A stretch of 55,339 nucleotides of DNA from Deltaproteobacteria bacterium (GTDB taxonomy: Bacteria > Desulfobacterota > JACPFL01): NCBI GenBank assembly GCA_016183025.1, contig JACPFL010000109.1, forward strand, positions 1 through 55,339. The letters are read 5' to 3'. The notes under the pieces were generated by a model. The model ran no database searches. It was not told where the DNA came from and saw only the letters and a list, made by a program, of their open reading frames with translations. The position numbers and the translations under genes were made by a program. Shown here piece after piece: positions 9,394-44,884 of this stretch. Within the stretch, counting starts at the first letter, position 1. Every line of letters begins with the position of its first letter.

Positions 9394-9460
9394 CGTGCCC
9401 TCCCCTCTTACTGTGATCCACCCGGTCAATCGCCCTTCCCCGGGCAGCCGCGAGAGCGAG

Positions 9461-9488: not shown

Positions 9489-9516
9489 GGAGTGGAGTGC
9501 CTGCGGGCGCGGGCGG

Positions 9517-10476: not shown

Positions 10477-10486
10477 CGGTCACTCC

Positions 10487-11266: not shown

Positions 11267-11389
11267 CAGCCGCCGGCCCTCCCCTTGCGCCCAGGCATCC
11301 CGGCGGGGGCGCCGGACGGTCAGAGGGGGTGGGGCGAACGGCAGGCCGGCGGGGGGCAGGGAACCGCCCCCCGTCTGCCCACCTCCCGG

Positions 11390-11584: not shown

Positions 11585-11738
11585 GGTCTTCCTCCTCTCT
11601 CCCGGCGAGCCGGGACATGGGGTGCTCGATCCACCAACCTCCGCATGATGCCGTGATGTGGTCGGCGCGCCGGCCGTGCACCGGCTCGCCCTCACCATGA
11701 GGACCTCGTCGGGGCCTCACGGCGAAGGTCTTGCGCCG

Positions 11739-12725: not shown

Positions 12726-12747
12726 GTGTGCCTCCTGTGGGCCTGCC

Positions 12748-16164: not shown

Positions 16165-16168
16165 GGCG

Positions 16169-16642: not shown

Positions 16643-16644
16643 CC

Positions 16645-21073: not shown

Positions 21074-21159
21074 CCTATCCCTCCTCGCCCGGGCTCCACT
21101 TCGGCCCGGGTCACGATCCCTCACGTGCCCGCACCAGGCGTCGGGGCCGGGCGAGCCTG

Positions 21160-23582: not shown

Positions 23583-23592
23583 GCCGGGCTCC

Positions 23593-24465: not shown

Positions 24466-24519
24466 GGGACCACACGGCCGTCGCCGAAGCCACGGACGGA
24501 CCGGGAGCGCGCGAGCCTC

Positions 24520-26135: not shown

Positions 26136-26143
26136 GGGGCGCA

Positions 26144-26171
26144 AGCATAGTCGCCAGCCCACCGCTGTCAA
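26144..26171 (-). promoter_or_regulatory. Promoter TTGACA-16-TATGCT, ATG 8 nt after the -10 (near-leaderless)
   Basis: Minus strand reads TTGACAgcggtgggctggcgacTATGCTtgcgccccATG. No Shine-Dalgarno can fit. Confidence 0.5.
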
Positions 26172-26363: not shown

Positions 26364-26834
26364 TCAGCGGGCGGCGTTCGCGCACGCCTCGATCGCCTCG
26401 ATGATCTGGTGGTACCCCGTGCAGCGGCAGAGGTTGCCGGCGATCGCCCGCTTGATCTCCGCAGGGGTGGGGTGCGGGTTCTCATCCAGGAGGGCCTTGG
26501 CCGAGAGGATCATCCCGGGGGTGCAGAAGCCGCACTGGAACCCGTAGTGCTCGATGAACGCGCGCTGCAGGGGGTGGAGCTCGCCGCCGCTGGCCAGCCC
26601 CTCGATCGTCACGATCTTGCGGCCAGCCGCGTGCGGGGCGAGGGTCAGACAGGCGTGCACGGTGCGGCCGTCGAGGATGACCGTGCAGGCGCCGCACTCC
26701 CCCATGCGGCAGTTGACCTTCGTCCCGGTGAGCCCCAGGGTATCCCGGAGCACGTCCACCAGGGTCTGGGTCGGTTCCACCTCCACCTGGTAGCCGCGGC
26801 CGTTGACCGTCAGTCGGATCTTCCGGCGAGCCAT
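26364..26834 (-). CDS. [2Fe-2S]-binding small subunit (CoxS-like, 156 aa)
   Basis: 'CRMGECGACTVILDG' and 'QCGFCTPGMI...CRCTGY'. Confidence 0.92.
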   Translation of the reverse strand: MARRKIRLTVNGRGYQVEVEPTQTLVDVLRDTLGLTGTKVNCRMGECGACTVILDGRTVHACLTLAPHAAGRKIVTIEGLASGGELHPLQRAFIEHYGFQCGFCTPGMILSAKALLDENPHPTPAEIKRAIAGNLCRCTGYHQIIEAIEACANAAR

Positions 26835-26836
26835 GA

Positions 26837-27757
26837 TCAGGCCCCCTCCCTGGAGCGCTGGCGGCCCCGGCCCCGGGTGGCCTCACGCCCGTCCCCCGCG
26901 ACCTGCCAGGCCTGCTCGAGCGCCCGGCGGCTGAGCACGCCGACCAGGTGTCGCTTGTACTCCTCCGACCCGAAGACATCGCTGCTGGGAGCGGCCAGGG
27001 CCCGCGCCCGCCGGGCCACCTCTTCGAGGAGCCCGGGCGAGGGGCGCTCGCCGCGCAAGAGCCCGGCCGCCTCGTCGCAGAGCAGCGGCGTGGGCCCCAC
27101 CGCGCCGAGCGCCAGCCGGGCGTCCTGACACACCCCGTCGGCATCGAGGGTCACCCGCGCGCCCACCCCCGCCACCGGGAAATCCAGCGCGTTCCGGTGG
27201 CTGAACTTCACGTACGTCGCCCCGGTCCCCGGCGGCAGCGGCGGCACCCGGACCTCGGTCAGCAGCTCCCCGGGCTGGAGCGCCGTGCTCAGGAAGTCCA
27301 CGAAGAAGCCCCGTAACGGCAGGCTTCGAGCACCGGCGGCGGAGGCCAGGGTCACCTCCGCATCCAGCACCAGGAGGGCCGGAGCCGGATCCTCCCGCGG
27401 GTCCCCGTGGCAGAGGTTGCCCCCGATGGTGCCGGCATTCCGCACCTGGATCGAGCCCACCTGCCCCTCCATCTCGACCAGCACCGGGGCCCGCCGACGG
27501 ACGACGCGAGAGGTCTCGATCTCCCGATGGGTGGTCAGGGCCCCGATCCGCAACCCCGCGGCGTCGTCCCATCGGATGTACCGGAGCTCCCGAAGCCGGC
27601 GGATGCTGATCAGGCAGGTCGGCTGCAAGAGCCGGTGGTTCATCAGGATGATCAGGGCCAGGCCGCCGGCGATGAGCTTGGCGCCCTCGCCCTGCTCGGT
27701 CAGCGCCCGCGAGGCCTCCTCGACGCTCCGCGCTTCGATGTACTCCACGCCTGTCAC
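26837..27757 (-). CDS. FAD-binding medium subunit (CoxM-like, 306 aa)
   Basis: 'AKLIAGGLALI' and 'VRNAGTIGGNLCHGDP'. It sits between the large and small subunits. Confidence 0.88.
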   Translation of the reverse strand: MTGVEYIEARSVEEASRALTEQGEGAKLIAGGLALIILMNHRLLQPTCLISIRRLRELRYIRWDDAAGLRIGALTTHREIETSRVVRRRAPVLVEMEGQVGSIQVRNAGTIGGNLCHGDPREDPAPALLVLDAEVTLASAAGARSLPLRGFFVDFLSTALQPGELLTEVRVPPLPPGTGATYVKFSHRNALDFPVAGVGARVTLDADGVCQDARLALGAVGPTPLLCDEAAGLLRGERPSPGLLEEVARRARALAAPSSDVFGSEEYKRHLVGVLSRRALEQAWQVAGDGREATRGRGRQRSREGA

Positions 27758-27811
27758 CCCCAGACCCTCTGCCTCGACCTCACTCCCCGGCCTGCCCAGT
27801 CGCCGGCTCCC

Positions 27812-30094
27812 TCAGGCCGTCCGGCCCGCCGCCCCCAGCGCCCGCCAGACCTTCTCGGGCGTGGCCGGGATCTCGTCGATCCAGACCCCCAGCGCGTCGT
27901 GGAGGGCCGCGACCAGCGCCGGCGCCACATCCTTCACCGAGTGCTCGGAGGCGCCTTTCGCTCCATAGGGACCGGCCGGGTAGGGCTCCTCCACGAACGA
28001 CACGATGGTCTCGTCCGTGACGTCGCTGGCCGTGGGGAGGAGGTACTCCATGAGGCTCGGGGTCAGGATCTGGCCCCCCTCCGTGGGCATGTCCTCCAGG
28101 AGCGCGAACCCCAGCCCCTGGGCCTCCCCCCCGATCAACTGCCCCCGCAGGGCCCCGGGGTTCAGCGCCCGCCCCACGTCCAGCACCACCACCGAGCGCA
28201 GCGGCCGCACCTTCCCCGTCTCCTCGTCCACCTCGAGGTCCATGAGGCCGGCGGAAAAGGTATGGCCCAGCTTGCCGTGGGGCTGGGAGAACCACCCATC
28301 GCCCCGCAGCTCGATCCCCTTCAGGCGGCACGCCCAGGAGAGCTTCCCCAGCGAGATGCGGCGGTCCGGCCGCTCGCGGACGAAGACATGCCCCTCGGCC
28401 AGGCCCAGCGCCTCGGGGGGCGCCTCGAGCTCATCCGCCGCGGCCTCGAAGACCTTCGTCCGCAGGTTGTGCGCCGCGAGCATGGCCGCGTTGCCCAGGC
28501 AGAAGGCCTGGCGGGACGCCACCGCCCGCCCCGACTTCGGCACCGCGGAGGTGTCCCCCAGCACGCAGGTCACGTCCTTGACCTCCAGCCCCAGCTCCTC
28601 GGCCACCACCTGGGCGAGCAGGGTCGAAGCCCCCTCGCCGAACTCGGCGGACTCGCACCGGACCACCGCCGTCCCGTCCGGCAGCAACTCGATGTTCGCC
28701 CCGGTCCCCTTCAGCAGGTAGATGGCGCCCGAAGAGGTATCGAAGATCGGCATGGTGCAGGCCACGCCGCGCCCGACCTTCTTGCGGGGGCCCGAGGGCT
28801 CGGGCTTCGGCCCGGCCAGCTCCCGGATCCGGGTCAGCACCTGCGGGAGCGTGACGGGATGATCGAGGTGGAGCATGGGCGAGATCGGGGTCGAGCGCCC
28901 CTGGACCAACGCGTTCTTCAGGCGGAGCGCGATAGGGTCCGTGCCCAGCGCCGTGGCCATCTTGTTCACCGTGGTCTCGAGGGCGAAGGCCGCCTGCGGG
29001 CCGCCGAAGCCCCGGAAGGCGCCGGCGATAGGGTCGTTCGTGTACGCCGCGACGCCCCGAATCCGCACGTTGGGGATGTCGTACGGACCACCCAGGTAGC
29101 AGCAGGCGACCTTGAGCACCGGCGGCGACGAGGAGGCGTAGGCGCCCCCGTTCAGCAGCACGTCGGCCTCGCAGGCGACGAAGGTCCCGTCGCGCCTCGC
29201 GCCCAGCTTCACCCGGATCCGGGCCGGGTTCCGCTTGGGGCTGGCCTGGAACGACTCCTCCGAGCGCCAGGCCATCCGCACCGGCCGGCCGCTCTTCAGC
29301 GCCAGCAGCGCCAGGTGGGGATGCACCGACACGTCGATCTTGCCGCCGAAGGCCCCGCCCATGGGCACGGGCACCACCCGGACCCGGTGCTCCGGGATCC
29401 CCAGCGCCCGGCTCACGCTCGTCCGCGCCTGCATCGGCGCCTGCGTGCCGGCGTACAGCGTCACCCCGCCCCCCGGCTCGGGCACCCCCACCCCCGCCGC
29501 CGGCTCCATGTACGCGTGCTCCTGGCGCGGCGTCCGGTAGGTCCCCTCCACGATCACGTCCGACTCGGCGAACCCACGCTCCACGTCGCCCCGGTCCAGC
29601 ACGACCGGGTCCCCACAGATGTTGCTCCCGCGGTCCTCGTGCACCCGGGGCGCGCCGGGCTGGATCGCCGCCTCCGGGTCCACAATGGGCGGCAGCACCT
29701 CGTACTCCACCTGGATCCGCTCCAGCGCTGCCTCCGCCAGCGCCTCGCTCTCCGCCGCCACCAGGGCGAGGGGGTCCCCCACCATCTTGGCCGTCTCCCC
29801 CTCGGCCACCAGCACCGGCTGGTCCGCCGCGTAGTCGCCGAACCGGTTCGTGCCGGCGACATCCTTGGCGGTGACCACGGCGATCACGCCCGGCATCCGC
29901 TCGGCCTCGCTCGGGTCGATCCGGAGCACCCGGGCGTGGGGATAGGGCGAGCGCAACGTCTTCCCGTGCAGCATCCCCGGAAACGTCACGTCGATGTTGT
30001 AGCGCTCCTGGCCGGTCGTCTTCGCCGGGCCCCGCACATCGGGGACCGTCTGCCCGATCACCCGGTAGGGAGAGCCGTCAGACGCCATCGCCAC
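27812..30094 (-). CDS. Xanthine dehydrogenase-family molybdopterin large subunit (760 aa, FRGFG type)
   Basis: 'VIGQTVPDVRGPAKTTGQERYNIDV', 'GGAFGGK', 'GAFRGFGGPQ', 'GAKGASEHS'. Confidence 0.9.
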   Translation of the reverse strand: MAMASDGSPYRVIGQTVPDVRGPAKTTGQERYNIDVTFPGMLHGKTLRSPYPHARVLRIDPSEAERMPGVIAVVTAKDVAGTNRFGDYAADQPVLVAEGETAKMVGDPLALVAAESEALAEAALERIQVEYEVLPPIVDPEAAIQPGAPRVHEDRGSNICGDPVVLDRGDVERGFAESDVIVEGTYRTPRQEHAYMEPAAGVGVPEPGGGVTLYAGTQAPMQARTSVSRALGIPEHRVRVVPVPMGGAFGGKIDVSVHPHLALLALKSGRPVRMAWRSEESFQASPKRNPARIRVKLGARRDGTFVACEADVLLNGGAYASSSPPVLKVACCYLGGPYDIPNVRIRGVAAYTNDPIAGAFRGFGGPQAAFALETTVNKMATALGTDPIALRLKNALVQGRSTPISPMLHLDHPVTLPQVLTRIRELAGPKPEPSGPRKKVGRGVACTMPIFDTSSGAIYLLKGTGANIELLPDGTAVVRCESAEFGEGASTLLAQVVAEELGLEVKDVTCVLGDTSAVPKSGRAVASRQAFCLGNAAMLAAHNLRTKVFEAAADELEAPPEALGLAEGHVFVRERPDRRISLGKLSWACRLKGIELRGDGWFSQPHGKLGHTFSAGLMDLEVDEETGKVRPLRSVVVLDVGRALNPGALRGQLIGGEAQGLGFALLEDMPTEGGQILTPSLMEYLLPTASDVTDETIVSFVEEPYPAGPYGAKGASEHSVKDVAPALVAALHDALGVWIDEIPATPEKVWRALGAAGRTA

Positions 30095-31795: not shown

Positions 31796-34387
31796 GTGCG
31801 TCGAGCTTTCGGAGCCCTGCGTCTCCCGCAACCTGCAGCCACAGGCTTTCTGCTGCTGGCCACTCTGCTCCTGCTCTGGCCGGCCTTCCTCGGCAGGACG
31901 CCGGTCCCGGCAGATATCCTCTACGAGAACTACTTCCCGTGGAAGGCGATCCAGTCCGGCGTGCAGGCCCAGAACCCCGCGATGGAGGATGCCATCAGGG
32001 TTTACGTCCCGCTGACCGAATACGCCTTCGACCGGTGGCGGGCCGGCACCCCTCCTCTCTGGAACCCCCTGATCGTGGCCGGCACGCCCGAAGCGGCGGC
32101 GAGCTTCTCCGGGGCGTTCTATCCGCTCAACGCCCTGTACCTCCTTCCCCACCGGCCCCTGGCTCACGCCCTGGATGTCGGGCTCCACCTGTTCCTGGCG
32201 ATGGCCTTCATGCAGCTCTTCCTCCGGGCACTCGGGTGCTCGGGATTCGGTGCGACCCTCGGGGGGATCGTCTATGGGCTGGGCGGGCTCATGGCGATCT
32301 GGCTCCCGTACGCGCCGGGCCGGCATGTCGTCGTCTGGCTCCCCCTGGCGTGGTACTTCCTCGAGCGCCTCTTCCACGGCGCACGGCTGGGAGCGGTTGC
32401 GGGCCTCGGCGTGGCCGTAGCCCTGCAGATCCTGGGCGGCCACGCCGAGTACCTCCTGTTCCAGGCACTGCTCACCGGCTTCTACCTGATCCTGCGGGGC
32501 TTCTGGTGGCTCCGGGGACGTCCGGGGGGGGCCGCGGCAGGGCGCCTGGTCGGGCGGGTGCTCCTCTCGGCCGGAGTCGCCCTGATGCTGGGCGCCATCC
32601 AGTGGCTCCCCCTGCTGGAGGTGCGCGCCCAGAGCCACCGGATCACCCGGGCTCTCGATGCCGAGGTGGATGCCGTATCGCCGTTCGCCCTGACCACGCT
32701 CATCTCCCCCCGGCTCTTCGGTTCGCCCATGGAGCGGAACCGGGTGGGGCCCACCTCCATCACGGTGATGTACATCGGGATCGCGCCCCTCCTGCTGGCC
32801 GTGGCGGGCGCCTGGTGGGGCCGGGGATGGCGGGGACGTGGAATGGCGGCCCTTTTCGTGCTCAGCTTTCTTGTGGCGACGAAGACACCCCTGACCTGGT
32901 TCTTCTATGACGTCGTCCCCCTGTTCTCACAGCTGCGCACGCTTCGGCGGATCATCCTCATCTTCGCAGCGCCGCTCAGTGTCCTCGCCGGGGTCGGGGC
33001 GAGCGCGCTGCAGGCGCGCCTGCAGCAGGAGGCGTTCTGTCGGGCGGTGATGCGCAGGCTGTCATGGGCCCGAATCGGAGCGCTGGGAGCGCTGCTCGGC
33101 GCAGGGCTGACCGGGGCGTACCTCCTCCAGGGGCTCTTCTATGAACCCGCCCTGAGACTGGTGGAGAAGACCCGGCCCGGCGTGCTCGTCGGGGATGTCC
33201 CGGCCAAGTTCCGGACCTTCTTCGCGTATGAGCTCCAGCAGCTCGCCCTGGCCGGCGCGCTCCTCATCGGATTCCTCCTCCTGGTCAGACTCCGTGCCAC
33301 GGGCTCCCTCCGGGAGCGCCCCTTCACCCTGGCCCTGCTCCTCCTCACGCTCATGGACCTCCTGCTCTTCGCGCGCGGCATCATGTCCATGGTGGATCTG
33401 CGCTGGCACCCGACCTCCCCTCCTCTGCCGGCGATCGCGCACATCAAGGCCGATACGGATCTCTTCCGGGTGATGCCGTTCGACCGCTACGGCCCGATCC
33501 ATGCGGATATCCCGTTTCCCGGCAATACGCTGATCCCTTACGGCGTGCAGGCATTGAACGGGATCCACGCCTTCCTGCCACGCCGGACGCTGGAGCTGAT
33601 GGGCGTGGCCGGATTCTGGGGCGTGCAATCGCCGGACCCGACGAGATTCCTGGGCCGATCATGGGTCTCCTTGATGGGTCTGGGCGACCCGCGGGGGAGG
33701 GCCCTCTTTCAGGTCCGGTACCTGATCACCAGCCCCCGAGATGACCATCCCCTTCCCGCGGATGCCCAGCTGATCTACCGGGGTGAGGTCAACCTCTACC
33801 GGCTCCCCACCCCGCTCCCACGGGCCTTCGTGGCGCGGCAGGCACGCACCTTCTCCGATGACACGCTGCTGCTCCGGGCGGTGATGGACCCCGGCATCGA
33901 CCTCCGCACCACGGTGCTGCTGGAGGCCGGCCCCACGGCCGGTGAGTACCGGGATCCCCTGGCGGAACCTCCTCCCGGTCGGGCCGGCGCGGAGAAGGCG
34001 GGCATGGGGACGGCGGGCGGAGAGATCTCCGGGGCCGGGAGGGCCGGAGAGGCGGCCGAGGTCACGCGCTACGAGCCGGAGCGCGTCGAGGTCCGCGCGC
34101 GTTCCTCCACCGGCGGATGGCTGGTGCTGCTGGATGCCCACTACCCGGGCTGGCGGGCCCGCGTCGATGCTCTGGAGGTCCCGGTCCTCCGCGCCAACTA
34201 CGCCTTCCGGGCCGTGCGCATCCCGCCGGGGGAGAGCACGGTGCTCTTCTTCTACGCCCCGGCCGGCGTCAGAGCGGGACTGCTCCTGTCCGGTCTGGGG
34301 GTCCTACTGCTCGCCGCCCTTCTTGTCGTGCATCTCCGCGGCCGCGAAGCCGGTCCCGCTCAGCGTGACGTCTCCCCTGCCAGATAG
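31796..34387 (+). CDS. yfhO: YfhO-family polytopic membrane protein (GT-C-type glycosyltransferase candidate), 863 aa
   Basis: GTG start. There are many TM segments in the first roughly 560 aa, then a soluble C-terminal domain and a terminal TM anchor. 'PLWNPLIVAGTPE...FYPLN' resembles the YfhO family. It has a full-length paralog at 37971-40564. Confidence 0.75.
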   Translation: MRRAFGALRLPQPAATGFLLLATLLLLWPAFLGRTPVPADILYENYFPWKAIQSGVQAQNPAMEDAIRVYVPLTEYAFDRWRAGTPPLWNPLIVAGTPEAAASFSGAFYPLNALYLLPHRPLAHALDVGLHLFLAMAFMQLFLRALGCSGFGATLGGIVYGLGGLMAIWLPYAPGRHVVVWLPLAWYFLERLFHGARLGAVAGLGVAVALQILGGHAEYLLFQALLTGFYLILRGFWWLRGRPGGAAAGRLVGRVLLSAGVALMLGAIQWLPLLEVRAQSHRITRALDAEVDAVSPFALTTLISPRLFGSPMERNRVGPTSITVMYIGIAPLLLAVAGAWWGRGWRGRGMAALFVLSFLVATKTPLTWFFYDVVPLFSQLRTLRRIILIFAAPLSVLAGVGASALQARLQQEAFCRAVMRRLSWARIGALGALLGAGLTGAYLLQGLFYEPALRLVEKTRPGVLVGDVPAKFRTFFAYELQQLALAGALLIGFLLLVRLRATGSLRERPFTLALLLLTLMDLLLFARGIMSMVDLRWHPTSPPLPAIAHIKADTDLFRVMPFDRYGPIHADIPFPGNTLIPYGVQALNGIHAFLPRRTLELMGVAGFWGVQSPDPTRFLGRSWVSLMGLGDPRGRALFQVRYLITSPRDDHPLPADAQLIYRGEVNLYRLPTPLPRAFVARQARTFSDDTLLLRAVMDPGIDLRTTVLLEAGPTAGEYRDPLAEPPPGRAGAEKAGMGTAGGEISGAGRAGEAAEVTRYEPERVEVRARSSTGGWLVLLDAHYPGWRARVDALEVPVLRANYAFRAVRIPPGESTVLFFYAPAGVRAGLLLSGLGVLLLAALLVVHLRGREAGPAQRDVSPAR

Positions 34388-35295
34388 CGCTCCGCTACGC
34401 GCCTGAGCCCCTCCTTCAGCGGCACCTCTGCCCGCCACCCGAGGACCTCACGGGCTCTCCGGCAATCGGCTGTCACGCGAGCCGCCTCGCCCTGACGGGC
34501 GTCTCCATGCGCGTGCGTCGGGGGGGCCCCGCACAGCTCGACCAGGTCGGTCAGCACGTCGCGGACCCTCGTGGGCACCCCACTGCCGATGTTGAAGACC
34601 TCAAACGGGTCATCGCCCCGCCCGGGCCCCAGCAGCCGGCAGAAACTCGCCGCCCTGATGAACGCCTCGACCACGTCATCCACGTAGACGAAGTCACGAA
34701 CCGCGTCGGGCATCCTGAGCCGGATCGGTTCCTGCCGCACCACGCACTCCAGGATGTACGGGACGAGGTAGGCCGGCTCCTGCCCGGGCCCGTAGACGTT
34801 GAACAGGCGCAGGACCACGGAGGGCACGCCCGAGCTGCGAGACGCCTGCCGGCACAGGTTCTCCCCCAGCCACTTGCTGATCCCGTAGGGTGAGGTCGGC
34901 CCGACCGGGGCATCCTCGGACAGCGCCCTGCCCTCGCCGCTTCCCGAGTACACGCCGCTCGTCGAGGCCATGATGCAGCACGCGTGCATCCTCCGGCAGT
35001 ACTCCAGGACGGCGCAGGTCCCGGTCACGTTGATGTCATAGCTCTCGTGCGGCGCCTCTGCGAACCGCTCGTGCCGCGTCACAGCCGCCAGATGGAAGAC
35101 CACCTCAGCCGGCGTCGCGCACTCCGCCACCCTCCGGATATCCGATCCCCACTCCAGCACATCGAGCCCCTCCCTCTTCAACCGGGCCACCAGGTGTCGC
35201 CCGATGAAGCCCCGGGGCCCCGTCACGAGCGGCCGCCGGAACGATGCGCCGGGCGCGTCGCGGGTCGGGGGGGCAGGTGTCGTCAAGGCCGTCAC
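34360..35295 (-). CDS. NAD-dependent epimerase/dehydratase (extended SDR), 311 aa
   Basis: GTG start in a GTGA overlap with the upstream stop. 'VTGPRGFIGRHL' Rossmann motif and the 'SPYGISKWLGE' YxxxK catalytic motif. Confidence 0.8.
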   Translation of the reverse strand: MTALTTPAPPTRDAPGASFRRPLVTGPRGFIGRHLVARLKREGLDVLEWGSDIRRVAECATPAEVVFHLAAVTRHERFAEAPHESYDINVTGTCAVLEYCRRMHACCIMASTSGVYSGSGEGRALSEDAPVGPTSPYGISKWLGENLCRQASRSSGVPSVVLRLFNVYGPGQEPAYLVPYILECVVRQEPIRLRMPDAVRDFVYVDDVVEAFIRAASFCRLLGPGRGDDPFEVFNIGSGVPTRVRDVLTDLVELCGAPPTHAHGDARQGEAARVTADCRRAREVLGWRAEVPLKEGLRRVAERYLAGETSR

Positions 35296-36278
35296 AGCCC
35301 GAGGCGACACAGCGCAGAGGCGGGATCCATGAACTCCTTGATGAACCGGCCGTACCAGTCGATCGTGATCTCGAGGCCCCTCTCGAAGCCCACGCGCGGC
35401 CGCCATCCGAGCAGGCGTTGGGCCTTCTCGTTCGCGGCGCACATCCGCCAGATCTCCGTCGGGCGGTACGGCAGCGCGCCGATCCGGACCCGGGACGACG
35501 ACCTGGTCATCCCGTGGATCACCCCGATCAGGTCGCGGATCGCGATCTCCCTGCCGGACCCCACATTGACCACCTCGCCGACCGCCTCGTCGCGGCCCGC
35601 CGCGAGCACGAAGGCGTCCACCAGATCCTCCACGAAGCTGAAGTCGCGCGTCTGCTTCCCCTCCGTCGCCAGCACCTCCTGTCCCAGCAGGCAGTTGATG
35701 ATGATCTCCGCGACGACCGCCCGCGGGCTCTGATAGGGCCCGAAGGCATTGAACGGCCGGAGGACGACGATCGGCTTCCCCTCGACCGCCCATTTCATCC
35801 GCGCGTAGAGCTCGCCGGCATACTTGCCCACCGCGTAGGGCGAGACCGGGAACGGGGTGGCGCCCTCGTGGAAAGGGCCGGCCTCCTGGCGCCCGTAGAC
35901 CTCGGACGACGAGATGTAGATGAAGCGCTCGTAATCCCCGTACGCCTCCAGGACGTTCACCGACCCCTTCCCGTTCGAATCGATCGCCTCGGCCACGTGG
36001 AGAAAGCTGTCCCCGACGTGATTGTAGGCGGCGAAATGGTAGATGATCTCCGGCCTGATCGTCCGGAGCTGCGCCAGCGAATCCGGGTTCCGGATGTCGG
36101 CCTCCACCGGGATCAGCTGGCCCCACAGCCCCGCCAGGCGCACATTGTCGATGATGCTGTTGTACCGCGTGAGCACGTAGAGCGAGGCCCCCTCCCGCAC
36201 CAGCCTCCGGCAGAGGTGCGAGGCGATGAACCCGGGGCCCCCGGTCACCAGCACCTTCTTGTTACGGAGGTCCATCAC
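35292..36278 (-). CDS. NAD-dependent NDP-sugar dehydratase/epimerase (extended SDR), 328 aa
   Basis: 'VLVTGGPGFIASHL', 'YISSSEVYG' and 'SPYAVGKYAGE' (S/YxxxK). Confidence 0.85.
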   Translation of the reverse strand: MMDLRNKKVLVTGGPGFIASHLCRRLVREGASLYVLTRYNSIIDNVRLAGLWGQLIPVEADIRNPDSLAQLRTIRPEIIYHFAAYNHVGDSFLHVAEAIDSNGKGSVNVLEAYGDYERFIYISSSEVYGRQEAGPFHEGATPFPVSPYAVGKYAGELYARMKWAVEGKPIVVLRPFNAFGPYQSPRAVVAEIIINCLLGQEVLATEGKQTRDFSFVEDLVDAFVLAAGRDEAVGEVVNVGSGREIAIRDLIGVIHGMTRSSSRVRIGALPYRPTEIWRMCAANEKAQRLLGWRPRVGFERGLEITIDWYGRFIKEFMDPASALCRLGL

Positions 36279-36988
36279 GCGTCCGTCTCCCGGTGCGTGA
36301 AGAAGGCGATGAGCTCGCGTTCGGCCTGCCGGTACTCCTGCTGGGTGTTGAACGTGATCTGCACCCCGCGATGCGGATGCACCCGCACGCGTCCCTCCTC
36401 GATCAGCCGCCCGAGCAGCCTGACGAGGCCTTCCCCGTCAGGCATCCGGAGCCACGCGGGCTCCACGTCGTCCAGCGCGGCGGCCTCGAGCAGCATCTGC
36501 CCGATGTAGTACGTCAGCACCGGCTTCTCCTCGAACGACCGGGCCCAGCCGGCCTCGTCCGCGGTCACCAGGCCGAACGGGCTCCGGATGTCGCCCGTGG
36601 TGATGGTCACCGCGGCCCCATGCCGTTCGTGCTCGGCCACCATCTGGTCCAGGTCCACCGACACAAGCGTATCGCCGTAGACGACGAAGGCGGTCTTCCC
36701 CATCATGGGCCGGGCATGACACAGGCGCTCCAGGATGCTCGCCTGCTCCCCGGCGTCGGCGAACTCGACTTCTGCATCGAACGAGCCGCGCGAGACGAAG
36801 TCCCTGATCAGGTCGCCCCGGTACCCGAGGCACAGGACGAAGCGGCGGTACCCTCTCGAGATGTAGTACTCGAGGTTGTGCTGGAGGATGGGCTTGCCGT
36901 TCAGGGGCACGAGCGGTTTGGGCACCGTGTCCGTCAGCGGCCTGAGCCGCGACCCCCGTCCGCCGCAGAGGATGATGGTCTTGATCAT
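36275..36988 (-). CDS. Sugar-1-phosphate nucleotidyltransferase (237 aa)
   Basis: ATG in an ATGA overlap with the GT2 stop. 'IILCGGRGSRLRPLTDTVPKPLVPLNGKPIL' is the NTP_transferase signature. Confidence 0.85.
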   Translation of the reverse strand: MIKTIILCGGRGSRLRPLTDTVPKPLVPLNGKPILQHNLEYYISRGYRRFVLCLGYRGDLIRDFVSRGSFDAEVEFADAGEQASILERLCHARPMMGKTAFVVYGDTLVSVDLDQMVAEHERHGAAVTITTGDIRSPFGLVTADEAGWARSFEEKPVLTYYIGQMLLEAAALDDVEPAWLRMPDGEGLVRLLGRLIEEGRVRVHPHRGVQITFNTQQEYRQAERELIAFFTHRETDA

Positions 36989-37974
36989 CCGGTGGAGGAC
37001 TCCCCTGTCGTCCGCTCGGTGCCGGCCGCCTCCCTCACGATGAATACCGGCCTGCCCTTCGTCTGGTCGTACAGGCGCCCCAGGTACTCCCCCAGCAGGC
37101 CGATCCCGATCAACTGGATGCTGCCGAGGAACATCCCGGAGGCCACCAGGGTGACCCAGCCTGCCGGCAGGTCCACCTTCGAGCCGAACAGCCGCATCAC
37201 CCCCAACGCCACCACGAAGGCCACATACGCGAGGGAGACCGAGGCGACGATCACCCCGGTGGCGAACAGGATGCGCAGCGGGACGATGGAGAACGCCAGG
37301 ATGCCGTCCCACGCGAAAGACACGAGCTCCCTGTAGCCGAACTTCGACCGTCCCGCGCGGCGCGGCGCGACGTCATAGGCGAGGCCGACCTGGCGGAATC
37401 CCACCCAATCCACCAGCCCGCGGAGAAACTTCCGGTATTCCGGGATGGCCACGATGACGTCCGCCACCTTGCGGTCCAGGAGGCGGAAATCCGACTGCCC
37501 GAACGAGAGCTTCAGCCCCGAGAGCTTCGACATCAGCCAGTAGAAGAGCCTCATCTGTTGGAGCTTCAGGCCGCTCAGCTGCGCGCTCCGCTTGATCGTG
37601 TAGACCACCTCGTAGCCCTGGCGCCAGAGGGCGATCATCTCCGGAATCAGGGAGGGCGGATGCTGGAGGTCGGCGTCCATCGTGATCACGGCCTCCCCGC
37701 GGGTGTAGCTCAGGCCGGCCAGGATCCCGCCCTGATAGCCGAAATTGCGCGAGAGCGACACGAACTTGACACACGGGTCCGTGTCCCTCAGGCGCTTGAT
37801 GATCTCGAGCGAGCGATCGTTGCTCCCGTTGTCCACGAACAGCATCTCGTACGAGGCCCCGGCCTTCTGACAGGCCTCCCGCACCTGCTCGTACAGCGTC
37901 TCCAGGTTCCCCTCCTCGTTCCAGACCGGAAACACGACGGAGACCTCCGGAACCCCTGCCGCAGCCATCGTCAC
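36985..37974 (-). CDS. Family-2 polyprenyl-phosphate glycosyltransferase (GtrB/CsbB/ArnC-like), 329 aa with two C-terminal TM helices
   Basis: 'VSVVFPVWNEEGNL...LFVDNGSNDRS...ITMDADLQHPP' gives the DxD/DAD motifs. The C-terminal hydrophobic segments are 'ILFATGVIVASVSLAYVAFVVALGV' and 'WVTLVASGMFLGSIQLIGIGLLGEY'. Confidence 0.88.
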   Translation of the reverse strand: MTMAAAGVPEVSVVFPVWNEEGNLETLYEQVREACQKAGASYEMLFVDNGSNDRSLEIIKRLRDTDPCVKFVSLSRNFGYQGGILAGLSYTRGEAVITMDADLQHPPSLIPEMIALWRQGYEVVYTIKRSAQLSGLKLQQMRLFYWLMSKLSGLKLSFGQSDFRLLDRKVADVIVAIPEYRKFLRGLVDWVGFRQVGLAYDVAPRRAGRSKFGYRELVSFAWDGILAFSIVPLRILFATGVIVASVSLAYVAFVVALGVMRLFGSKVDLPAGWVTLVASGMFLGSIQLIGIGLLGEYLGRLYDQTKGRPVFIVREAAGTERTTGESSTG

Positions 37975-40564
37975 TCCGTCCCCACCTGCGGGGCCACGGG
38001 CTTCCGGCGAGCACGGAGACAGGCCACGGCGACGCCCGCGACCAGCACGAGTCCGAGGCCGGACAGGACCAGTCCAACCCTGACGGCGGCCGGGGCGTAA
38101 AAGTAGACCACCGTGCTCTCCCCTTCGGGGATGCGGACAGCCCGGAAAGCGTAGTTGGCGCGAAGGACCGGGACCTCACGACCATTGACGCGGGCCCGCC
38201 AGCCCGGATAGTGGGCATCGAGCAGCACCAGCCATCCGCCGACCGGAGTCCGTGCCCGGATCTCGACGCGCTCCGGCTCGTACCGGATGATCTCGGCTGT
38301 GCCGCCCGTCCTGCCGTTCGCGGTCGCGCTTCCGCCAGCCGCGACCGCGTCGCCCCCCCTTGCGCCGGTCGGGCCGGGCGGGAGGGCCGCGGGTGAGCCA
38401 CGCCGTCCACCCTCCGCTGAGGCGGCCTCGAGCAACACCGTTCGAGCAAGACCGTGGCGCGCAGGTCCACCTTGGGGTCCAGCACCGCCTCGAGCAACGC
38501 CGTGTCATCGGAGAAGACCTGCGCCCGCGGCACCACGAAGGCCCGGGGAAGCGGAGTGGGGACCTGGTAGAGGTTGACCTCACCCCGGTAGATCAGGCGG
38601 GCCTCGGGCAGGGGCGGCGGCTCATCCCCCGGCCGCGTGACGAGGTATCGAGCCTGAAAGAGCGCCGCTCCGCGGGGGGACCCTGGGCTCGTCACCGAGA
38701 TCCACGGGATGCCCACATAACGCTGCAGCCCCGGTCGACCCCAGAAGCCGAGGACCCCCATCAGCTCGACCGTGCGGCGTGGCAGAAATGAATTGTACCC
38801 GTTCACCGATTGCAGGCCATACGGGAGGAGCGTGTTCGGCGGGAAGGGGAGGTCGGGGTAGATGTCCCCGTAACGATCTATCGGCATCACGCGGAAGAGG
38901 TCCGTGTCGGCCTTGAGCCGCTGGACCGCCGGCGGGGTGGGGAACGGGGGAAGCCGGCGCGGGTCGACCATGGGGTTCCAGTGCACGGCGAAGAGCATGA
39001 GGTCGCCGAGCGCCAGGAACAGGACCGCCGGGGCGAAGGCGCCTTCCCGCAGGGTGGATCCGGCTCGCAGCCGCAGCAGGAGCAGGCTCCCGAGGAGCAG
39101 CGCCGCGGCGAGGGCCAGTTGCTGGACCTCGTACCCGAAGAAGGCCCGGAACTTGCCGTGAATGTCGCCCGTGACGACCACGGGCCTCGTCCTCTCGACC
39201 AGCTTCAGGGCAAGTCCAAAGAAGAGGTCCTGGAGGAGGTAGCCTCCGCCCAATCCGATCGCGAGGATGGCCGCCAGTGCCCCGAGTCGGGCCCACGAGA
39301 GCCTGCGCGCCACCGCTTGCCGGAACTCCTCGCGCCGGAGCCGCGCCTCCAGCTCGGTCGCGCCGATCCCCGCCAGGATGCTCAAGGGGAGGGGGAACAG
39401 GTTGATCATGCGGGAGAGGAATCGGAGCTGCGCGAGAGGGGGGAAGACCTGATAGAAGAGCCAGATCAGCGGGGTCCTCAGCGCCAGCAGCGCGACGAGG
39501 AGGAGAAGGACCAACATCCCGCGGGTCGGCCAGACCTTCCGCCACCGGGCCGCCCCCACCGCGAGCAGCAGCGGCGCGATCCCGATATAGATCAGCAGGC
39601 CGAAGTGGGTGCCGGGCCCCACCCAATTGTGGTCGACGGGTGACCCGAAGATGCGGGGGGAGACGAGGGTGGCGACGGCGAGCGGCGACATGAACTGCAG
39701 GTCCTCGAAGGTGCGTGTCGCCCGGTGGCTCTCGGCCCGGACCTCCAGGAGGGGGACCCACTGGGCGGCGCTCAGCAGGAGGGCCAGCCCGGCCGCCAGC
39801 AGGAGGCCACCGGCGACCGACGCCGGGGTCGCTTCACCCCGCAGGCCGCGGAGCCACCAGAAGGCCCGCAGGACCACGTACAGGCTCGTCAGCAGCAAGT
39901 GGAACAGGATCGTCTCCGCGTACCCGACGAGGACCTGCAGCCCGAGCGCGCAGCCCAGGCCGATGACCGCCCCCGGCCGGGCCCTCTGGAAGATCTGCTC
40001 GATGAAGTACCACGCCAGGGGGGACCAGACCATCACGTGGAGGGTGGGCGTATAGTGCCACAGCACCGTCGTGGCCGACAGCCCGTAGACGATCCCCCCG
40101 AGCGTCGCGCCGAACCCCGAACAGCCGAGCCGTCGGAGCAGCAGGTGCATGAAGGCCATCGCCAGGAACAGGTGGAGCCCGAGGTCGAGGGTGCGGGCGA
40201 GGGACCAGTTGCCCAGCAGGTACAGGATGTTCAACGGGTAGAACGCGCCCGAGAGCCCCGCTCCGGCCTCCGGCGTGCCGGCCACGATCAGGGGATTCCA
40301 CAGGGGAGGGGTCCCGTCCCGCCAGCGCTCGAAGGCATAGTTCGTCAGGGGGATGAATTGCCGGATCGGATCGCTCATCGCCGGGTGCTGGGCCCGGACG
40401 CCGGGCTTCAGTGCCTTCCACGGGAAGAACTGCTCGTAGAGGAGATCTGCCGGGGCCGGGATTCGGCCGAGGAAGGCCGGCGCGAGCAGGAGCAGCACGG
40501 CCAGCAGCAGGAAGCCCGGGCCCCTCAGGCAGCGCCGGCGCAGGAATGTGGAACCACCACGCAT
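37971..40564 (-). pseudogene. yfhO: Second YfhO-family gene, split by a 14-nt tandem duplication
   Basis: The N-terminal 703 codons (ATG 40564) align residue-for-residue with yfhO-1 up to 'ATVLLE'. The C-terminal 155 aa continue in another frame (track ORF 37971-38438), ending in an ATGA overlap with the GT2 start. Length minus 14 nt is divisible by 3. Confidence 0.8.
38428..38455 (-). repeat. 14-nt tandem direct duplication (one mismatch) causing the yfhO-2 frameshift
   Basis: Minus strand reads ACGGTCTTGCTCGA ACGGTGTTGCTCGA. Both copies encode T-V-L-L-E. Removing either copy restores 'ATVLLEAASAEGG', collinear with 'TTVLLEAGPTAGE' of yfhO-1. Confidence 0.9.
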
Positions 40565-40680
40565 TCGATTAAAATCCCTGCCATCTCCGCCATTGTCAAG
40601 AACGAATCGGCTCTCTTCCGGACTCGGAGGCCGTTCCTGGTCCGGATCCCCACGGCACGATACGCGACCTTCCCGCCGGA

Positions 40681-40709
40681 CTGTCATTCGTTCTCCCCGG
40701 TATGATAAT
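40681..40709 (+). promoter_or_regulatory. Candidate promoter CTGTCA-17-GATAAT for the plus-strand GT2 gene
   Basis: The AT-rich TATGATAAT lies in a high-GC context, about 130 nt upstream of the GTG at 40842. Confidence 0.35.
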
Positions 40710-40841
40710 CTCTTGATCCACCGTGGGGTCGACCCCCTGAGGGGCGCTGCCTTCCGGCTCGAGGAGACCCGTGGCGGCCCATGTGATCGAAGTCGACATC
40801 GGTCGAGGAGTTCATCCCGGCGCCTCCGCCATGGAACAGCC

Positions 40842-41564
40842 GTGACCGCGTTCTTATCCGTCGTGGTTCCAGCGTATAACGAGGCGTGCATCCTCGGAAG
40901 CACGATCCCGACGATCTCGAAGTACCTCAAGGCCGAGCAAATCGATTACGAATATGTCTTTGTCGACGACGGCAGCACGGATGGCACGGCAGACGTGCTC
41001 ATGAAGCTGACCTCCGGACAGCCTTCCACCCTGCTCAGGAATGACCGGAACATGGGGAAGGGATTCTCGGTCCAGCGAGGGATGCTGCACGCGAGCGGGG
41101 AATACGTCCTGTTCACCGATGCCGACCTCTCCACCCCGATCGAGATGGCCTCCGAGCTGCTCCGCTGGGCCCAGCAAGGCTACGATGTGGTCATCGGGTC
41201 GAGGCGGCTGCCCACTTCGAAGACCGTCGTGCACCAGCCGCGGTACCGCGAGCTTCTCGGGGAGGTCTTCTACTGGCTGGTCAGGGTGTTCATCCTTCCC
41301 CAGATCAGGGATACCAACTGCGGGTTCAAGCTGTTCCGGAGGGACGTGGCCCGAGCGGTCTTCCGTCGGCAGACACTCAGGCGGTGGGGCTTCGATGTCG
41401 AGACATTATTCATCGCCACCAAGCTCGGGCTCTCGATCCGTGAGGTTCCGGTGAGCTGGTACAACGTGCGGGATACAAAAGTCCGACTCATCCAGGCGAC
41501 GCTTGAGACCTTGGGCGAGCTCGCGCGGATCAAGCTCAACGACTGGAAGGGGCTGTATGAGTGA
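40842..41564 (+). CDS. Family-2 glycosyltransferase, dolichyl/polyprenyl-phosphate beta-glucosyltransferase-like (240 aa, no TM tail)
   Basis: GTG start. 'LSVVVPAYNEA...VFVDDGSTDGT...LFTDADLSTP...DTNCGFKLFRR' gives the GT2 motifs. The start choice is uncertain. Confidence 0.8.
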   Translation: MTAFLSVVVPAYNEACILGSTIPTISKYLKAEQIDYEYVFVDDGSTDGTADVLMKLTSGQPSTLLRNDRNMGKGFSVQRGMLHASGEYVLFTDADLSTPIEMASELLRWAQQGYDVVIGSRRLPTSKTVVHQPRYRELLGEVFYWLVRVFILPQIRDTNCGFKLFRRDVARAVFRRQTLRRWGFDVETLFIATKLGLSIREVPVSWYNVRDTKVRLIQATLETLGELARIKLNDWKGLYE

Positions 41565-41596: not shown

Positions 41597-42706
41597 TCAT
41601 GACTCCCGGGGGAGATCAACGGGTTCAGCCGAGCAGAGCACTCGCAGGGCTGCAGGATCGGACGGCAGCCCCAGATCGGCGATGTGGTGACCGGTCACCA
41701 GAAACGGTTCCCCGCAGAGCACTGACCCCAGGTGGATGAACGCTCGGGCCACGGGCATCGCCACGTCGAGGAGCCCGCCCAGCTCGACGAGCGGCACCAG
41801 GCAGTCCCGGACGTTCTCCAGCAGGTAGCGGTGCCGCACCTCGGTAGGCCCCTTGAGCCGAGCGAAGCTCTCCAGGCCTGATCCCTGGAACTCCACCCCC
41901 TCCAGGCTGAGCGGCGGGCCGAACTCCGCCTCCGCGTACTGCGGGAGGGCAAAGCCCAGGGCGGCCGCCAGGCGTTCAAGCTCACCGTGCAGGGCCCGGA
42001 TCACGCGGCTGACCGCAGGAGTGATCCCCTCGCGGAAGATGTAGAACTCCCCTCCGGTGAACTCGATCCGGCCGACGTTCAGCAGGGTCCCAGCCGCGTA
42101 GACCGTCACTGCGGGATTGCTGAGGGCCGCGGCCAGGGCATGCGGGACGGCCTGCATCCCAGGAAAGAGCGGCCGGAGACGGCCGAGGAGCAGCGCGGTG
42201 GCCTTGCCGGGCCATCCCCCGACGAACAGGCGCCGAGCGGTGAAGAAGATCTCCACGCGGGCCGGGCCGGTCAGCCGCGTGCCATAGGGCAGCGTGTTCG
42301 TCTCCCCGACGGTCATCTCGACCCCCGGCCTCGCCTGCCGCAGCCGGCTGGCCAGGCGGAGGGCACCGAGGCGGCCCGCCCAGACGACGACGGCCATCCC
42401 CTGGCGCAGCCGGGGCAGCAACGCGTCAAACAGGGCCTCATGCCCGGTGGTGGGGATGACGACGTGTATGAGCTCCACCCCTTCCAGCGCGGCCTCGAGG
42501 TCCGTGGTGGCCAGCTCCAGGGGCGCGGTGGCAGCCCGGCCGTCCCGGATGAACTCGATCGCGCCGCGCTCGAAGGTCGGCTGGAAGGCCCGGGCGAAGG
42601 CGGGGTGCTCGCACAGGCGCACGCGATGCCCGGCGAGGGCCAGCTCCGCGGCCATGGCATGGGCGCCGTTGCCGCCACCCAGGACGGCCAGGGGCGCCAC
42701 GCTCAT
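41597..42706 (-). CDS. NAD/NADP octopine/nopaline dehydrogenase-family protein (369 aa)
   Basis: Start at MSVAPLAV. 'LAVLGGGNGAHAMAAELALAGHRV' is an N-terminal Rossmann motif. Length and layout resemble the opine dehydrogenase family. Confidence 0.65.
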   Translation of the reverse strand: MSVAPLAVLGGGNGAHAMAAELALAGHRVRLCEHPAFARAFQPTFERGAIEFIRDGRAATAPLELATTDLEAALEGVELIHVVIPTTGHEALFDALLPRLRQGMAVVVWAGRLGALRLASRLRQARPGVEMTVGETNTLPYGTRLTGPARVEIFFTARRLFVGGWPGKATALLLGRLRPLFPGMQAVPHALAAALSNPAVTVYAAGTLLNVGRIEFTGGEFYIFREGITPAVSRVIRALHGELERLAAALGFALPQYAEAEFGPPLSLEGVEFQGSGLESFARLKGPTEVRHRYLLENVRDCLVPLVELGGLLDVAMPVARAFIHLGSVLCGEPFLVTGHHIADLGLPSDPAALRVLCSAEPVDLPRES

Positions 42707-42791
42707 CGGGGCCCGCCTTGTCGCCAGGAGCACCGATCTGCTAGACGATCTGCTATGGGGGGCGACAGGGCCATCGGAAAGGGGGACGGCT

Positions 42792-43402: not shown

Positions 43403-44884
43403 CTATCCCCGGCGCCAGCGCAGCCGCGGCTGCCGGGCGGCCCGTACCTCGTCCAAGCGCGAGAGCTTCGGGTGGTGGGGAGCCTCGAGCACCGTAGCCG
43501 GCTCGACCTCGGCCTCCCGGGCGATCCGGATGAACGCCTCGACGATCCGGTCCAGCTCCTCCCGGCTCTCGGTCTCCGTCGGCTCGATCATGAGGGCTGC
43601 CTGGACGACCAGGGGGAAGTAGATGGTCGGCGGGTGGATCCCGAAGTCCATCAGGCGCTTGGCGATGTCCAGGGTGTGCACCCCGTGCTGGCCCTGGCGG
43701 CGGTCGGTGAACACGCACTCGTGCATGCAGGGGCGGTCGTACGGCAGGTGATAGTAGGGCTTCAGGCGCTCCTTCAGGTAGTTGGCGTTGAGGACCGCGG
43801 TCTCCGCCACCTCCCGCAGCCCCGCGGGTCCATAGGCCAGGATGTAGCTGTAGGCCCGGACCAGCATCCCGAAGTTCCCGCAGAAGGCCCGGAGCCTTCC
43901 GATCGAGCGGGGCCGGTCGTAGTCCTGCCGGAAGCGCTCTCCCTCCTTCACGATCACCGGGACCGGCAGGAACGCCGCCAGCGCCCGCGTGACCCCTACC
44001 GGCCCGGCCCCGGGCCCGCCGCCGCCGTGGGGCGTGGAGAAGGTCTTGTGCAGGTTGAAATGGAGCACATCAATGCCCATGCTCCGCGGTCGGGCGATCC
44101 CCAGCAACGCGTTCAGGTTGGCCCCGTCACAGTAGACCAGCCCCCCCCGTGCGTGCACGACCTGGGCGATCTCCCCGATCTCCTCCTCGAACAGGCCGAG
44201 CGTGTTCGGGTTCGTGACCATGATGGCCGCCACCTCGTCGTCCACGAGGCTGGCCACCCGCTCCGCACGGAGGTACCCGCGCTCCCCGGTGGGGATCGGG
44301 ACGACCTTGTAGCCGCAGAGCGCGGCGCTGGCAGGGTTGGTGCCGTGGGCCGTGTCCGGGACGAGGACCTTGGTCCGGACCGAGTCGCTCGCGATGTGGT
44401 ACGCGCGGATCATGAGCATCCCGGCCAGCTCGCCGTGGGCCCCGGCCGCCGGCTGCAGGGTCACGGCGTCCATCCCGCTGATGTCGGCCAGGAACCGCTC
44501 CAGCTCGTGCATGAGCCGCAGCGCCCCCTGGCTCAGCGCGTCCGGCTGGCCGGGGTGGGCCAGGGCGAAGCCGGGAATCCGCGCGGCCTCCTCGTTCACT
44601 TTGGGGTTGTACTTCATCGTGCAGGAGCCCAGAGGATACGGCCCGACGTCGATGGCGAAGTTCCACTGAGACATCCGGGTGAAGTGGCGGACGACCTCCA
44701 CCTCGCTCACCTCCGGGAAGTCCTCGATCTCCTTGCGCACGAGATGGGAGGGGAGGAGCTGGTCCAGCGGCGGGGCCTCCACGTCGCAGGCGGGGAGGGA
44801 ATACCCGCGGCGTCCAGGGGCCCCCTGCTCGAAGAGGAGCGGCTCGTTGAAGATCAGCCCGGTCGTCCCCAGCGGTTCCGCCAT
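43403..44884 (-). CDS. gcvPB: Glycine dehydrogenase (decarboxylating) subunit 2
   Basis: ATG at 44884. 'GSCTMKYNPK' and 'NLHKTFSTPHGGGGPGAGPVGV' (PLP-lysine region), 493 aa. Confidence 0.95.
   Translation of the reverse strand: MAEPLGTTGLIFNEPLLFEQGAPGRRGYSLPACDVEAPPLDQLLPSHLVRKEIEDFPEVSEVEVVRHFTRMSQWNFAIDVGPYPLGSCTMKYNPKVNEEAARIPGFALAHPGQPDALSQGALRLMHELERFLADISGMDAVTLQPAAGAHGELAGMLMIRAYHIASDSVRTKVLVPDTAHGTNPASAALCGYKVVPIPTGERGYLRAERVASLVDDEVAAIMVTNPNTLGLFEEEIGEIAQVVHARGGLVYCDGANLNALLGIARPRSMGIDVLHFNLHKTFSTPHGGGGPGAGPVGVTRALAAFLPVPVIVKEGERFRQDYDRPRSIGRLRAFCGNFGMLVRAYSYILAYGPAGLREVAETAVLNANYLKERLKPYYHLPYDRPCMHECVFTDRRQGQHGVHTLDIAKRLMDFGIHPPTIYFPLVVQAALMIEPTETESREELDRIVEAFIRIAREAEVEPATVLEAPHHPKLSRLDEVRAARQPRLRWRRG

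Follow-up and report, generated by a model that had tools for sequence, protein, structure and literature searches.

We have analysed a 55,339-nt stretch of DNA (hereafter the window; contig JACPFL010000109.1 of assembly GCA_016183025.1, recorded as Deltaproteobacteria bacterium), in which positions 31,796 to 41,564 carry a compact island of glycosyltransferase and sugar-nucleotide genes. We read this island, with a probability of roughly 0.6, as a transmembrane glycosylation system of several components and of the 'three-component' type, built from two types of module. Its genes join two recurrent units, namely YfhO enzymes (often paired) with a short family 2 glycosyltransferase (GT2), and a GtrB-like GT2 with a nucleotidyltransferase (NT) and two extended short-chain dehydrogenases/reductases (SDRs). 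A lipid-carrier glycosyltransferase of the GT-A type and a membrane glycosyltransferase of the GT-C type are encoded together, the stop codon of the gene yfhO-2 overlapping the start codon of the GtrB-like gene, here designated GT2-TM.

Gene order and the YfhO pair

Genes were called from open reading frames (ORFs) guided by the GC content of third codon positions (GC3), together with Pfam and NCBIfam scans of the window, and the resulting gene set and coordinates agree with those of a preliminary description of the locus. The gene yfhO-1 (31796..34387, plus strand) encodes an 863-aa YfhO-family GT-C glycosyltransferase. It faces a minus-strand operon in the order yfhO-2, GT2-TM, NT, SDR1, SDR2. 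The first of these, yfhO-2 (37971..40564), is a paralogue of yfhO-1 that is interrupted in the assembly, its ATG at 40564 opening frame A; GT2-TM (36985..37974; 329 aa) encodes a polyprenyl-phosphate glycosyltransferase of the GtrB/CsbB/ArnC type with C-terminal transmembrane helices. NT (36275..36988; 237 aa) is a sugar-1-phosphate nucleotidyltransferase, SDR1 (35292..36278; 328 aa) an extended SDR of the dehydratase or decarboxylase type, and SDR2 (34360..35295; 311 aa) an extended SDR of the epimerase or 4-ketoreductase type. The four successive junctions are 4-nt start/stop overlaps (GTGA, ATGA, GTGA and GTGA, respectively), all as previously noted, and at two of them an alternative ATG start lies 1–6 nt downstream. 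Beyond a divergent 277-bp intergenic spacer of lower GC content (40565..40841), the short GT2 gene (40842..41564, plus strand) encodes a DPM1/PpgS-like protein of 240 aa. A syntenic sibling contig, L001 (GCA_016192655.1), is 99.1–99.7% identical to the window and keeps the same operon gene order.

On its plus strand (40681–40709) the spacer has a single sigma-70-like match, a consensus match only. At the other end of the operon, yfhO-1 and SDR2 are convergent and overlap by 28 nt (34360–34387), with no terminator-like structure, and their transcription toward each other could cause mutual interference. Rfam, tRNA and terminator scans of the window gave no matches, and therefore no riboswitch, tRNA or phage-style insertion signature is seen there.

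Sequence comparison and structural modelling support the assignment of the two large membrane proteins to the YfhO-family GT-C enzymes. YfhO-1 and YfhO-2 share 61% amino-acid identity over 821 aa, far beyond chance, and their genes are 73–79% identical in conserved blocks of DNA, a level that rules out the paralogues as the arms of an invertible or recently converted segment. YfhO-1 matches the Pfam family PF09586 with 38.1 bits and the C-terminal piece of YfhO-2 with 35.1 bits (cut-off 28.5), and the N-terminal piece of YfhO-2 scores 20.5 bits, under the cut-off. Similarity to the family profile is low, with the match lying mostly in the C-terminal 80 residues; most homologues of these proteins carry a precomputed PF09586 assignment. 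In the Pfam scan, neither large protein matched any family other than YfhO at E <= 0.01. A sequence search of the PDB with YfhO-1 gave no match, and no solved YfhO structure is present in that database. An AlphaFold2 model of YfhO-1 was built from 44 homologues (predicted local distance difference test, pLDDT, 84; predicted TM-score, pTM, 0.89). When compared with the PDB by Foldseek, it matched AftD, STT3/AglB/PglB, AftA, EmbA-C and PMT4, all at a probability of 1.00 (E 4e-6 to 1e-2, TM-score 0.3–0.5), and GT-C glycosyltransferases were its only confident structural neighbours. An ArnT/PMT or transporter identity, which had been named at the outset as the assignment to check, is ruled out by the Pfam scan and these matches.

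According to the model helices and hydropathy, YfhO-1 has a transmembrane core at residues 13–529 with approximately 13 helices, followed by an extracytoplasmic domain of about 295 aa (531–822) that ends in a beta-sandwich, and by a last transmembrane helix at 823–851. YfhO of Bacillus subtilis is described with the same topology, in which a large loop separates the last two transmembrane helices (PMC5836110). Residue D65, located in the first extracytoplasmic loop between helices 1 and 2, is kept in at least 90% of the 44 homologues (the loop motif is E64-D65 in YfhO-1 and S-D in YfhO-2), and we infer a catalytic role for it. Thus, the family proposed earlier for the two paralogues stands; what does not stand is the picture of two intact genes, as yfhO-2 is frameshifted and not a single intact ORF.

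The short GT2, whose likeliest start is the GTG at 40842, matches Pfam Glycos_transf_2 (3e-28), carries a DAD motif and has no transmembrane helix. Its best PDB match is the dolichol-phosphate mannose (Dol-P-Man) synthase of Pyrococcus furiosus (5e-19), followed by GtrB and ArnC; NCBIfam models for Dol-P-hexose transferase, AglJ and PpgS are matched weakly, under cut-off. The nearest YfhO relatives were surveyed in 80 metagenome loci, found via an alignment of the C-terminal domain. Species-representative genomes scanned with patterns from the YfhO pair had yielded no relative, wider alignments being too divergent to seed the scan, and a metagenome scan made before the C-terminal-domain alignment had likewise returned none. 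A GT2 without transmembrane helix (214–304 aa) occurs near YfhO in 13 of the 80 loci, directly adjacent in 6 of them, and in 10 of 36 YfhO contigs of at least 5 kb; these proteins are 26–34% identical to the short GT2 of the window. Because such GT2s commonly adjoin YfhO relatives, the short GT2 is probably a lipid-sugar synthase partner of YfhO and not an accessory, which modifies the preliminary description on this one point and leaves its soluble, Dol-P-Man synthase-like and divergent character as stated.

Two YfhO copies are present in about 13 of the 80 loci. Pairs on opposite strands or in tandem were seen on unrelated contigs (L004, 6850–12786; L091, L092, L098, L103, L109, L153 and others), the pair of L004 being flanked by FG-GAP repeat proteins. 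In an Acidobacteriota metagenome-assembled genome, a GtrB-like GT2 lies near the YfhO gene.

A conserved sugar-donor cassette

GT2-TM is a full-length homologue of GtrB, as had been suggested from its sequence: it matches the Synechocystis GtrB structure (PDB 5EKP) over residues 9–320 with an E-value of 2.4e-76 and ArnC with 1e-47. Its DXD-type motif is DAD (in 'TMDADLQH') and hydropathy peaks are found at residues 220–238 (weak), 241–259 and 276–294. The best NCBIfam model is PgfS (E 4e-80), with 269 bits where the cut-off is 500, and ArnC scores 175 bits where it is 529; the comparisons support a protein of the GtrB/CsbB/ArnC type with no equivalog-level match to either PgfS or ArnC.

The three downstream proteins have the families expected of sugar-nucleotide enzymes. 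NT matches Pfam NTP_transferase (1.6e-24), its best PDB matches being Glc-1-P cytidylyltransferase and Man-1-P guanylyltransferase, and MurU was matched over the full length. SDR1 matches GDP_Man_Dehyd (6e-54), the structures of Mth375, Pal and DesIV, and the NCBIfam models for LegB-type 4,6-dehydratase (2e-53) and dTDP-Glc 4,6-dehydratase (1e-40), both under cut-off. It has the motif S-S-E, with the catalytic Glu present; GMD and UXS carry a similar TSE. In a published motif comparison, the UXS enzyme Mth373 has S-A-E and RmlB has T-D-E, the latter unlike SDR1 (Table 4 of PMC12820599). SDR2 belongs to Pfam Epimerase (E 1e-42) and has the motif STSGVYS, without the catalytic Glu; its PDB matches are MoeE5 (a UDP-GlcA 4-epimerase), the archaeal epimerase/dehydratase-family entries 6wj9 and 6wjb, and GDP-6-deoxy-4-hexulose reductases. 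From these family matches, the sugar made here is probably a remodelled nucleoside diphosphate (NDP)-hexose or NDP-N-acetylhexosamine, 6-deoxy and/or 4-epimerised.

The GT2-TM family is very large and well conserved, with more than 5000 matches at E <= 1e-40, and the gene neighbourhoods of its homologues were surveyed in 84 loci. The order GT2-NT-SDR1 recurs at the same offsets in 20–21 of these, and in 16–17 of the 19 loci whose identity is 52% or higher. On four independent contigs (L006–L009), the closest homologues of GT2-TM (63–68% identity) are followed at identical offsets by NT (237–238 aa, with a truncated 179-aa call in L007), SDR1 (326–327 aa) and SDR2 (281–289 aa), as for example in L007 at 8001–13236. 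In all four, a YdjC deacetylase and S-adenosylmethionine (SAM) methyltransferases lie 3' of the cassette, and in L007 and L008 a PMT_2-type membrane protein is near. Unannotated proteins of 608 and 643 aa beside the cassette in L006 and L009 were considered as GT-C partners and rejected, each having one hydropathy peak and no Pfam match. The cassette loci cover roughly ten taxonomic groups, with representatives among Binatia, Acidobacteriota, Planctomycetota, Omnitrophota, Chloroflexota, Methylomirabilales, Magnetococcales, Alpha- and Gammaproteobacteria, Thermoleophilia and Bacteriovorax.

In 11 further loci the GT2 is followed directly by YdjC. One of them, the Bordetella parapertussis locus L084, has a YdjC homologue next to a GT2 of 43% identity to GT2-TM, and we infer this locus to be lgm (see PMC4993483 for the Lgm pathway). 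Overall, the usual neighbours of the cassette are YdjC and methyltransferases, with a PMT_2/ArnT-like GT-C enzyme in three loci. The same gene order across many loci argues that the sugar genes serve GT2-TM, and the dedicated NDP-sugar pathway of the preliminary description is thereby borne out, NT and the SDRs being translationally coupled to GT2-TM and travelling with the GT2 in many genomes. The GT2-NT-SDR-SDR group looks like a separate, widely conserved cassette for an uncharacterised Arn/Lgm-like lipid-linked sugar pathway.

Proposed pathway and alternatives

If the island works as one system, the cassette (module A: GT2-TM, NT, SDR1 and SDR2) would supply one donor. NT would turn a sugar-1-phosphate into an NDP-sugar, which SDR1, with its catalytic Glu, and the epimerase- or reductase-like SDR2 would remodel, most likely to the 6-deoxy and/or 4-epimerised hexose or N-acetylhexosamine proposed above, and GT2-TM would load this sugar onto undecaprenyl phosphate at the cytoplasmic face of the membrane. 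In module B, consisting of the YfhO pair and the short GT2, the latter would probably use a housekeeping nucleotide sugar to make a second polyprenyl-phosphate sugar. The lipid-linked sugars would be carried over the membrane by a flippase whose gene lies elsewhere in the genome, and the two YfhO enzymes would then pass them to an extracytoplasmic acceptor, either using one donor each or acting at successive positions. The operon overlaps suggest that, in the lineage of the window, it is the YfhO enzymes that use what the cassette makes.

Candidate acceptors would be Ser/Thr-rich envelope proteins, lipopolysaccharide (LPS) or another periplasmic glycan, with teichoic acid unlikely. The closest relatives of GcvPB, encoded beside the island, do not exceed 69% identity, and its named neighbours come from Methylomirabilales/NC10, Deltaproteobacteria and Thermodesulfobacteriota; the best named matches of GT2-TM belong to Methylomirabilales, Binatia and Acidobacteria. 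Because these nearest named relatives are from diderm phyla, the host is a probable diderm of a deep uncultured lineage with high GC content, and proteins or LPS are the likelier acceptors for this reason. YfhO enzymes are known to O-glycosylate proteins in Ser/Thr-rich regions (PMC12041528).

The most specific form of the proposal can be put forward only tentatively. It would see YfhO enzymes coupled, in a diderm lineage, to a GtrB-NT-SDR-SDR cassette as a two-donor periplasmic system with a non-teichoic acceptor (LPS or Ser/Thr-rich envelope proteins), and the cassette as an Arn/Lgm-like donor pathway of a new kind, able to exchange its GT-C partner and yielding a rare lipid-linked sugar, probably a 6-deoxy or amino one. 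To our knowledge, YfhO enzymes have so far been characterised in Firmicutes only.

Several observations weigh against a single functional system. The gene yfhO-2 is broken in the present assembly. NT, SDR1 and SDR2 all score under every NCBIfam equivalog cut-off, and therefore no single sugar can be assigned, and the short GT2 might be no lipid-phosphate sugar synthase but a soluble GT2 of the ordinary kind. No candidate for a GtrA-like flippase, whether of the SMR or of the MATE/MOP type, was found in the window, in line with the preliminary description; the sole small membrane ORF there is a YGGT protein. In characterised systems, GtcA/CflA flippases are unlinked to the operon and encoded elsewhere in the genome (PMC8035078), so the absence of a linked one is not anomalous, and MATE/MOP flippases can substitute for the GtrA type. 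Outside the sibling strain, the surveys showed almost no co-occurrence of yfhO with the cassette: the GT2-NT-SDR-SDR unit is present in none of the 80 YfhO loci, and a YfhO gene lies within 10 kb of a GT2-TM homologue in 1 of the 84 loci, from an Acidobacteriota metagenome-assembled genome. As the pairing of cassette and YfhO is rare elsewhere, the functional link between them rests on the operon structure of one lineage, and a cassette that serves another GT-C enzyme remains a rival.

We should mention here that in a protein of contig L002 (948–5102, P0004), and likewise in P0013, P0019, P0025 and P0028, an N-terminal YfhO GT-C part is fused to a C-terminal Wzx/MOP-type flippase domain (approximately 1384 aa in total, with Polysacc_synt at residues 889–1211).

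The rival reading with another GT-C enzyme, which we regard as unlikely, holds that two unrelated modules lie side by side: the cassette would feed a GT-C enzyme elsewhere, for example a PMT_2/ArnT-like one that modifies lipid A in the manner of Lgm, Flm and Arn, and the YfhO pair would use the short GT2 only. It draws on the arrangement seen in other genomes, where the cassette precedes YdjC and methyltransferases near PMT_2 proteins, on the similarity of GT2-TM to the GT2 of the presumed lgm locus, and on the tendency of YfhO relatives to adjoin short GT2s and not GtrB-like ones. However, none of the YdjC, methyltransferase, PMT_2 or aminotransferase genes was found in the window, yfhO-2 and GT2-TM share a 4-nt overlap, and all five genes belong to a single operon of overlapping genes, which the sibling strain has in the same arrangement.

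The interruption of yfhO-2 raises another possibility, namely that the island is decaying, with yfhO-2 a true pseudogene after duplication and only yfhO-1 (with either GT2) functional. An imperfect 14-nt tandem duplication (38427..38454; on the minus strand, 38454–38427 reads cggtcttgctcgaa followed directly by cggtgttgctcgag) shifts the frame of yfhO-2. The shifted frame continues for approximately 350 codons and enters GT2-TM, so that translational coupling would be lost, and the second copy makes a GTG start at 38438, from which a C-terminal ORF of 155 aa runs to 37971. The deletion of either copy gives an open yfhO-2 ORF of 859 aa, colinear with YfhO-1. Decay is nonetheless improbable, since both halves of yfhO-2 retain 61–74% identity to yfhO-1 with no in-frame stops, and since the sibling L001, 99.1% identical over this stretch, reads acggtcttgctcgaggcc at the same site, uninterrupted and without the duplication. 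Each copy in the window differs from the L001 sequence by one base, which would be odd for a fresh duplication. The yfhO gene of L001 is itself split, by a run of 14 N at another place, so that a conserved or programmed split of yfhO-2 is ruled out. L001 (at about 6633) also lacks 80 bp of gcvPB (window 43933–44012), and gcvPB was not called there. Frame-breaking indels thus occur in both assemblies, where they may be artefacts or strain or minor variants, and are therefore unreliable as evidence for a pseudogene.

Very improbable, finally, is a Firmicute-style pathway in a monoderm host, with the YfhO enzymes decorating lipoteichoic or wall teichoic acid (LTA or WTA) as CsbB/YfhO do: the genetically characterised glycan acceptors of YfhO are indeed all teichoic acids (PMC5836110, PMC8035078), but the named proteins nearest to GcvPB and GT2-TM all come from diderm phyla, no teichoic-acid genes are present in the window, and proteins are also glycosylated by YfhO enzymes (PMC12041528), so that of the CsbB/YfhO logic invoked in the preliminary description the enzyme families hold and a teichoic-acid acceptor does not appear likely.

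Genomic surroundings and comparison with known systems

The flanks of the island are metabolic, with an amidohydrolase, molybdopterin (Mo) hydroxylases, a branched-chain amino-acid ABC transporter, an octopine dehydrogenase-like gene, and glycine-cleavage (gcv) and folate genes. Neither Wzx/Wzy, nor an initiating transferase, nor further glycosyltransferases are found among the genes of the window, which differs in this from O-antigen and capsule clusters; that the sugar genes belong to an O-antigen cluster merely abutting the YfhO genes, a point raised in the preliminary description, is ruled out by this flanking gene content. The octopine/nopaline dehydrogenase-like gene (41597–42733) lies directly downstream of the short GT2 in the opposite orientation; the sibling contig has it in this place too, and no connection to the glycosylation genes is evident. 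Three large subunits of molybdopterin hydroxylases (CoxL/xanthine dehydrogenase type) are encoded at 13894–19874 and 26364–30094, together with two genes each of the size of FAD and 2Fe-2S subunits (Pfam confirms one of each), and these sets bracket the branched-chain amino-acid ABC transporter (19892–26171). Two neighbouring paralogous genes of the Haem_oxygenase_2/TENA-PQQC-like type (7680–9429) lie beside a luciferase-like monooxygenase, a tautomerase and an amidohydrolase. The first 4000 nt of the window (1–4000) have a GC content of 0.62–0.64, against about 0.70 elsewhere, and contain no ORF passing the GC3 filter.

If the system is functional, YfhO-type extracytoplasmic glycosylation would reach beyond Firmicutes and teichoic acids. 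The parts are known and their arrangement is new; as the logic itself is already well known, the advance is incremental. The chief value of the island may be as a pointer to a widespread, uncharacterised four-gene sugar-donor cassette with interchangeable partners (YdjC, methyltransferases, PMT_2, YfhO). The sugar it makes, once identified, would annotate many environmental genomes, and the cassette could reveal a common envelope modification, possibly one of charge or of antimicrobial-peptide resistance, as with Arn and Lgm.

Precedents for the proposed logic act on different acceptors. The target is teichoic acid for CsbB/YfhO (PMC5836110), protein for GtrB/PgtC2 and PgfS/PgfM1/PgfM2 (PMC12041528), and O-antigen for the Gtr and GT136 systems (PMC11127046). 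The island differs from Gtr (GtrA/GtrB/Gtr*) and GT136 in its GT-C family, in the absence of a linked flippase and of any O-antigen locus, phage or integrase context at the locus, and has in common with them the proposed succession of cytoplasmic polyprenyl-phosphate sugar synthase, flippase and periplasmic GT-C enzyme. Among the pathways that modify lipid A with aminosugars, Bordetella LgmABC, Francisella FlmF2/NaxD/FlmK and enterobacterial ArnC/ArnD/ArnT likewise link an ArnC/LgmA-like GT2 to sugar-nucleotide tailoring genes, and the YdjC deacetylase and PMT_2/ArnT-like GT-C enzyme of these systems accompany the relatives of the cassette elsewhere; in the window, the YdjC/ArnD deacylase, the aminotransferase and ArnT/PMT_2 are missing and the GT-C partner is YfhO.

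The pairing with YfhO itself is found in CsbB/YfhO of B. subtilis and Staphylococcus aureus and in Lmo2550/Lmo1079 of Listeria, where, as here, a GtrB-type GT2 shares its operon with a YfhO-family GT-C enzyme that has a large outside domain between its last two transmembrane helices, and the operon contains no flippase gene. The window differs from them in having two YfhO paralogues, NT with two SDRs and a second GT2 without transmembrane helix, and in its non-Firmicute, probably diderm host. The Pgf system of Streptococcus mutans belongs to a different phylum and lacks the extra nucleotidyltransferase and second SDR of the island; in turn, GT2-TM reaches 269 of the 500 bits set for PgfS, SDR2 is only epimerase-like where Pgf has a 4-epimerase, and no gene for a Ser/Thr-rich adhesin or substrate was seen in the cluster or the window. 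Nevertheless, Pgf shares with the island a GtrB-like GT2 (PgfS being the best NCBIfam model for GT2-TM), two YfhO-type enzymes and a sugar-nucleotide enzyme of the SDR type.

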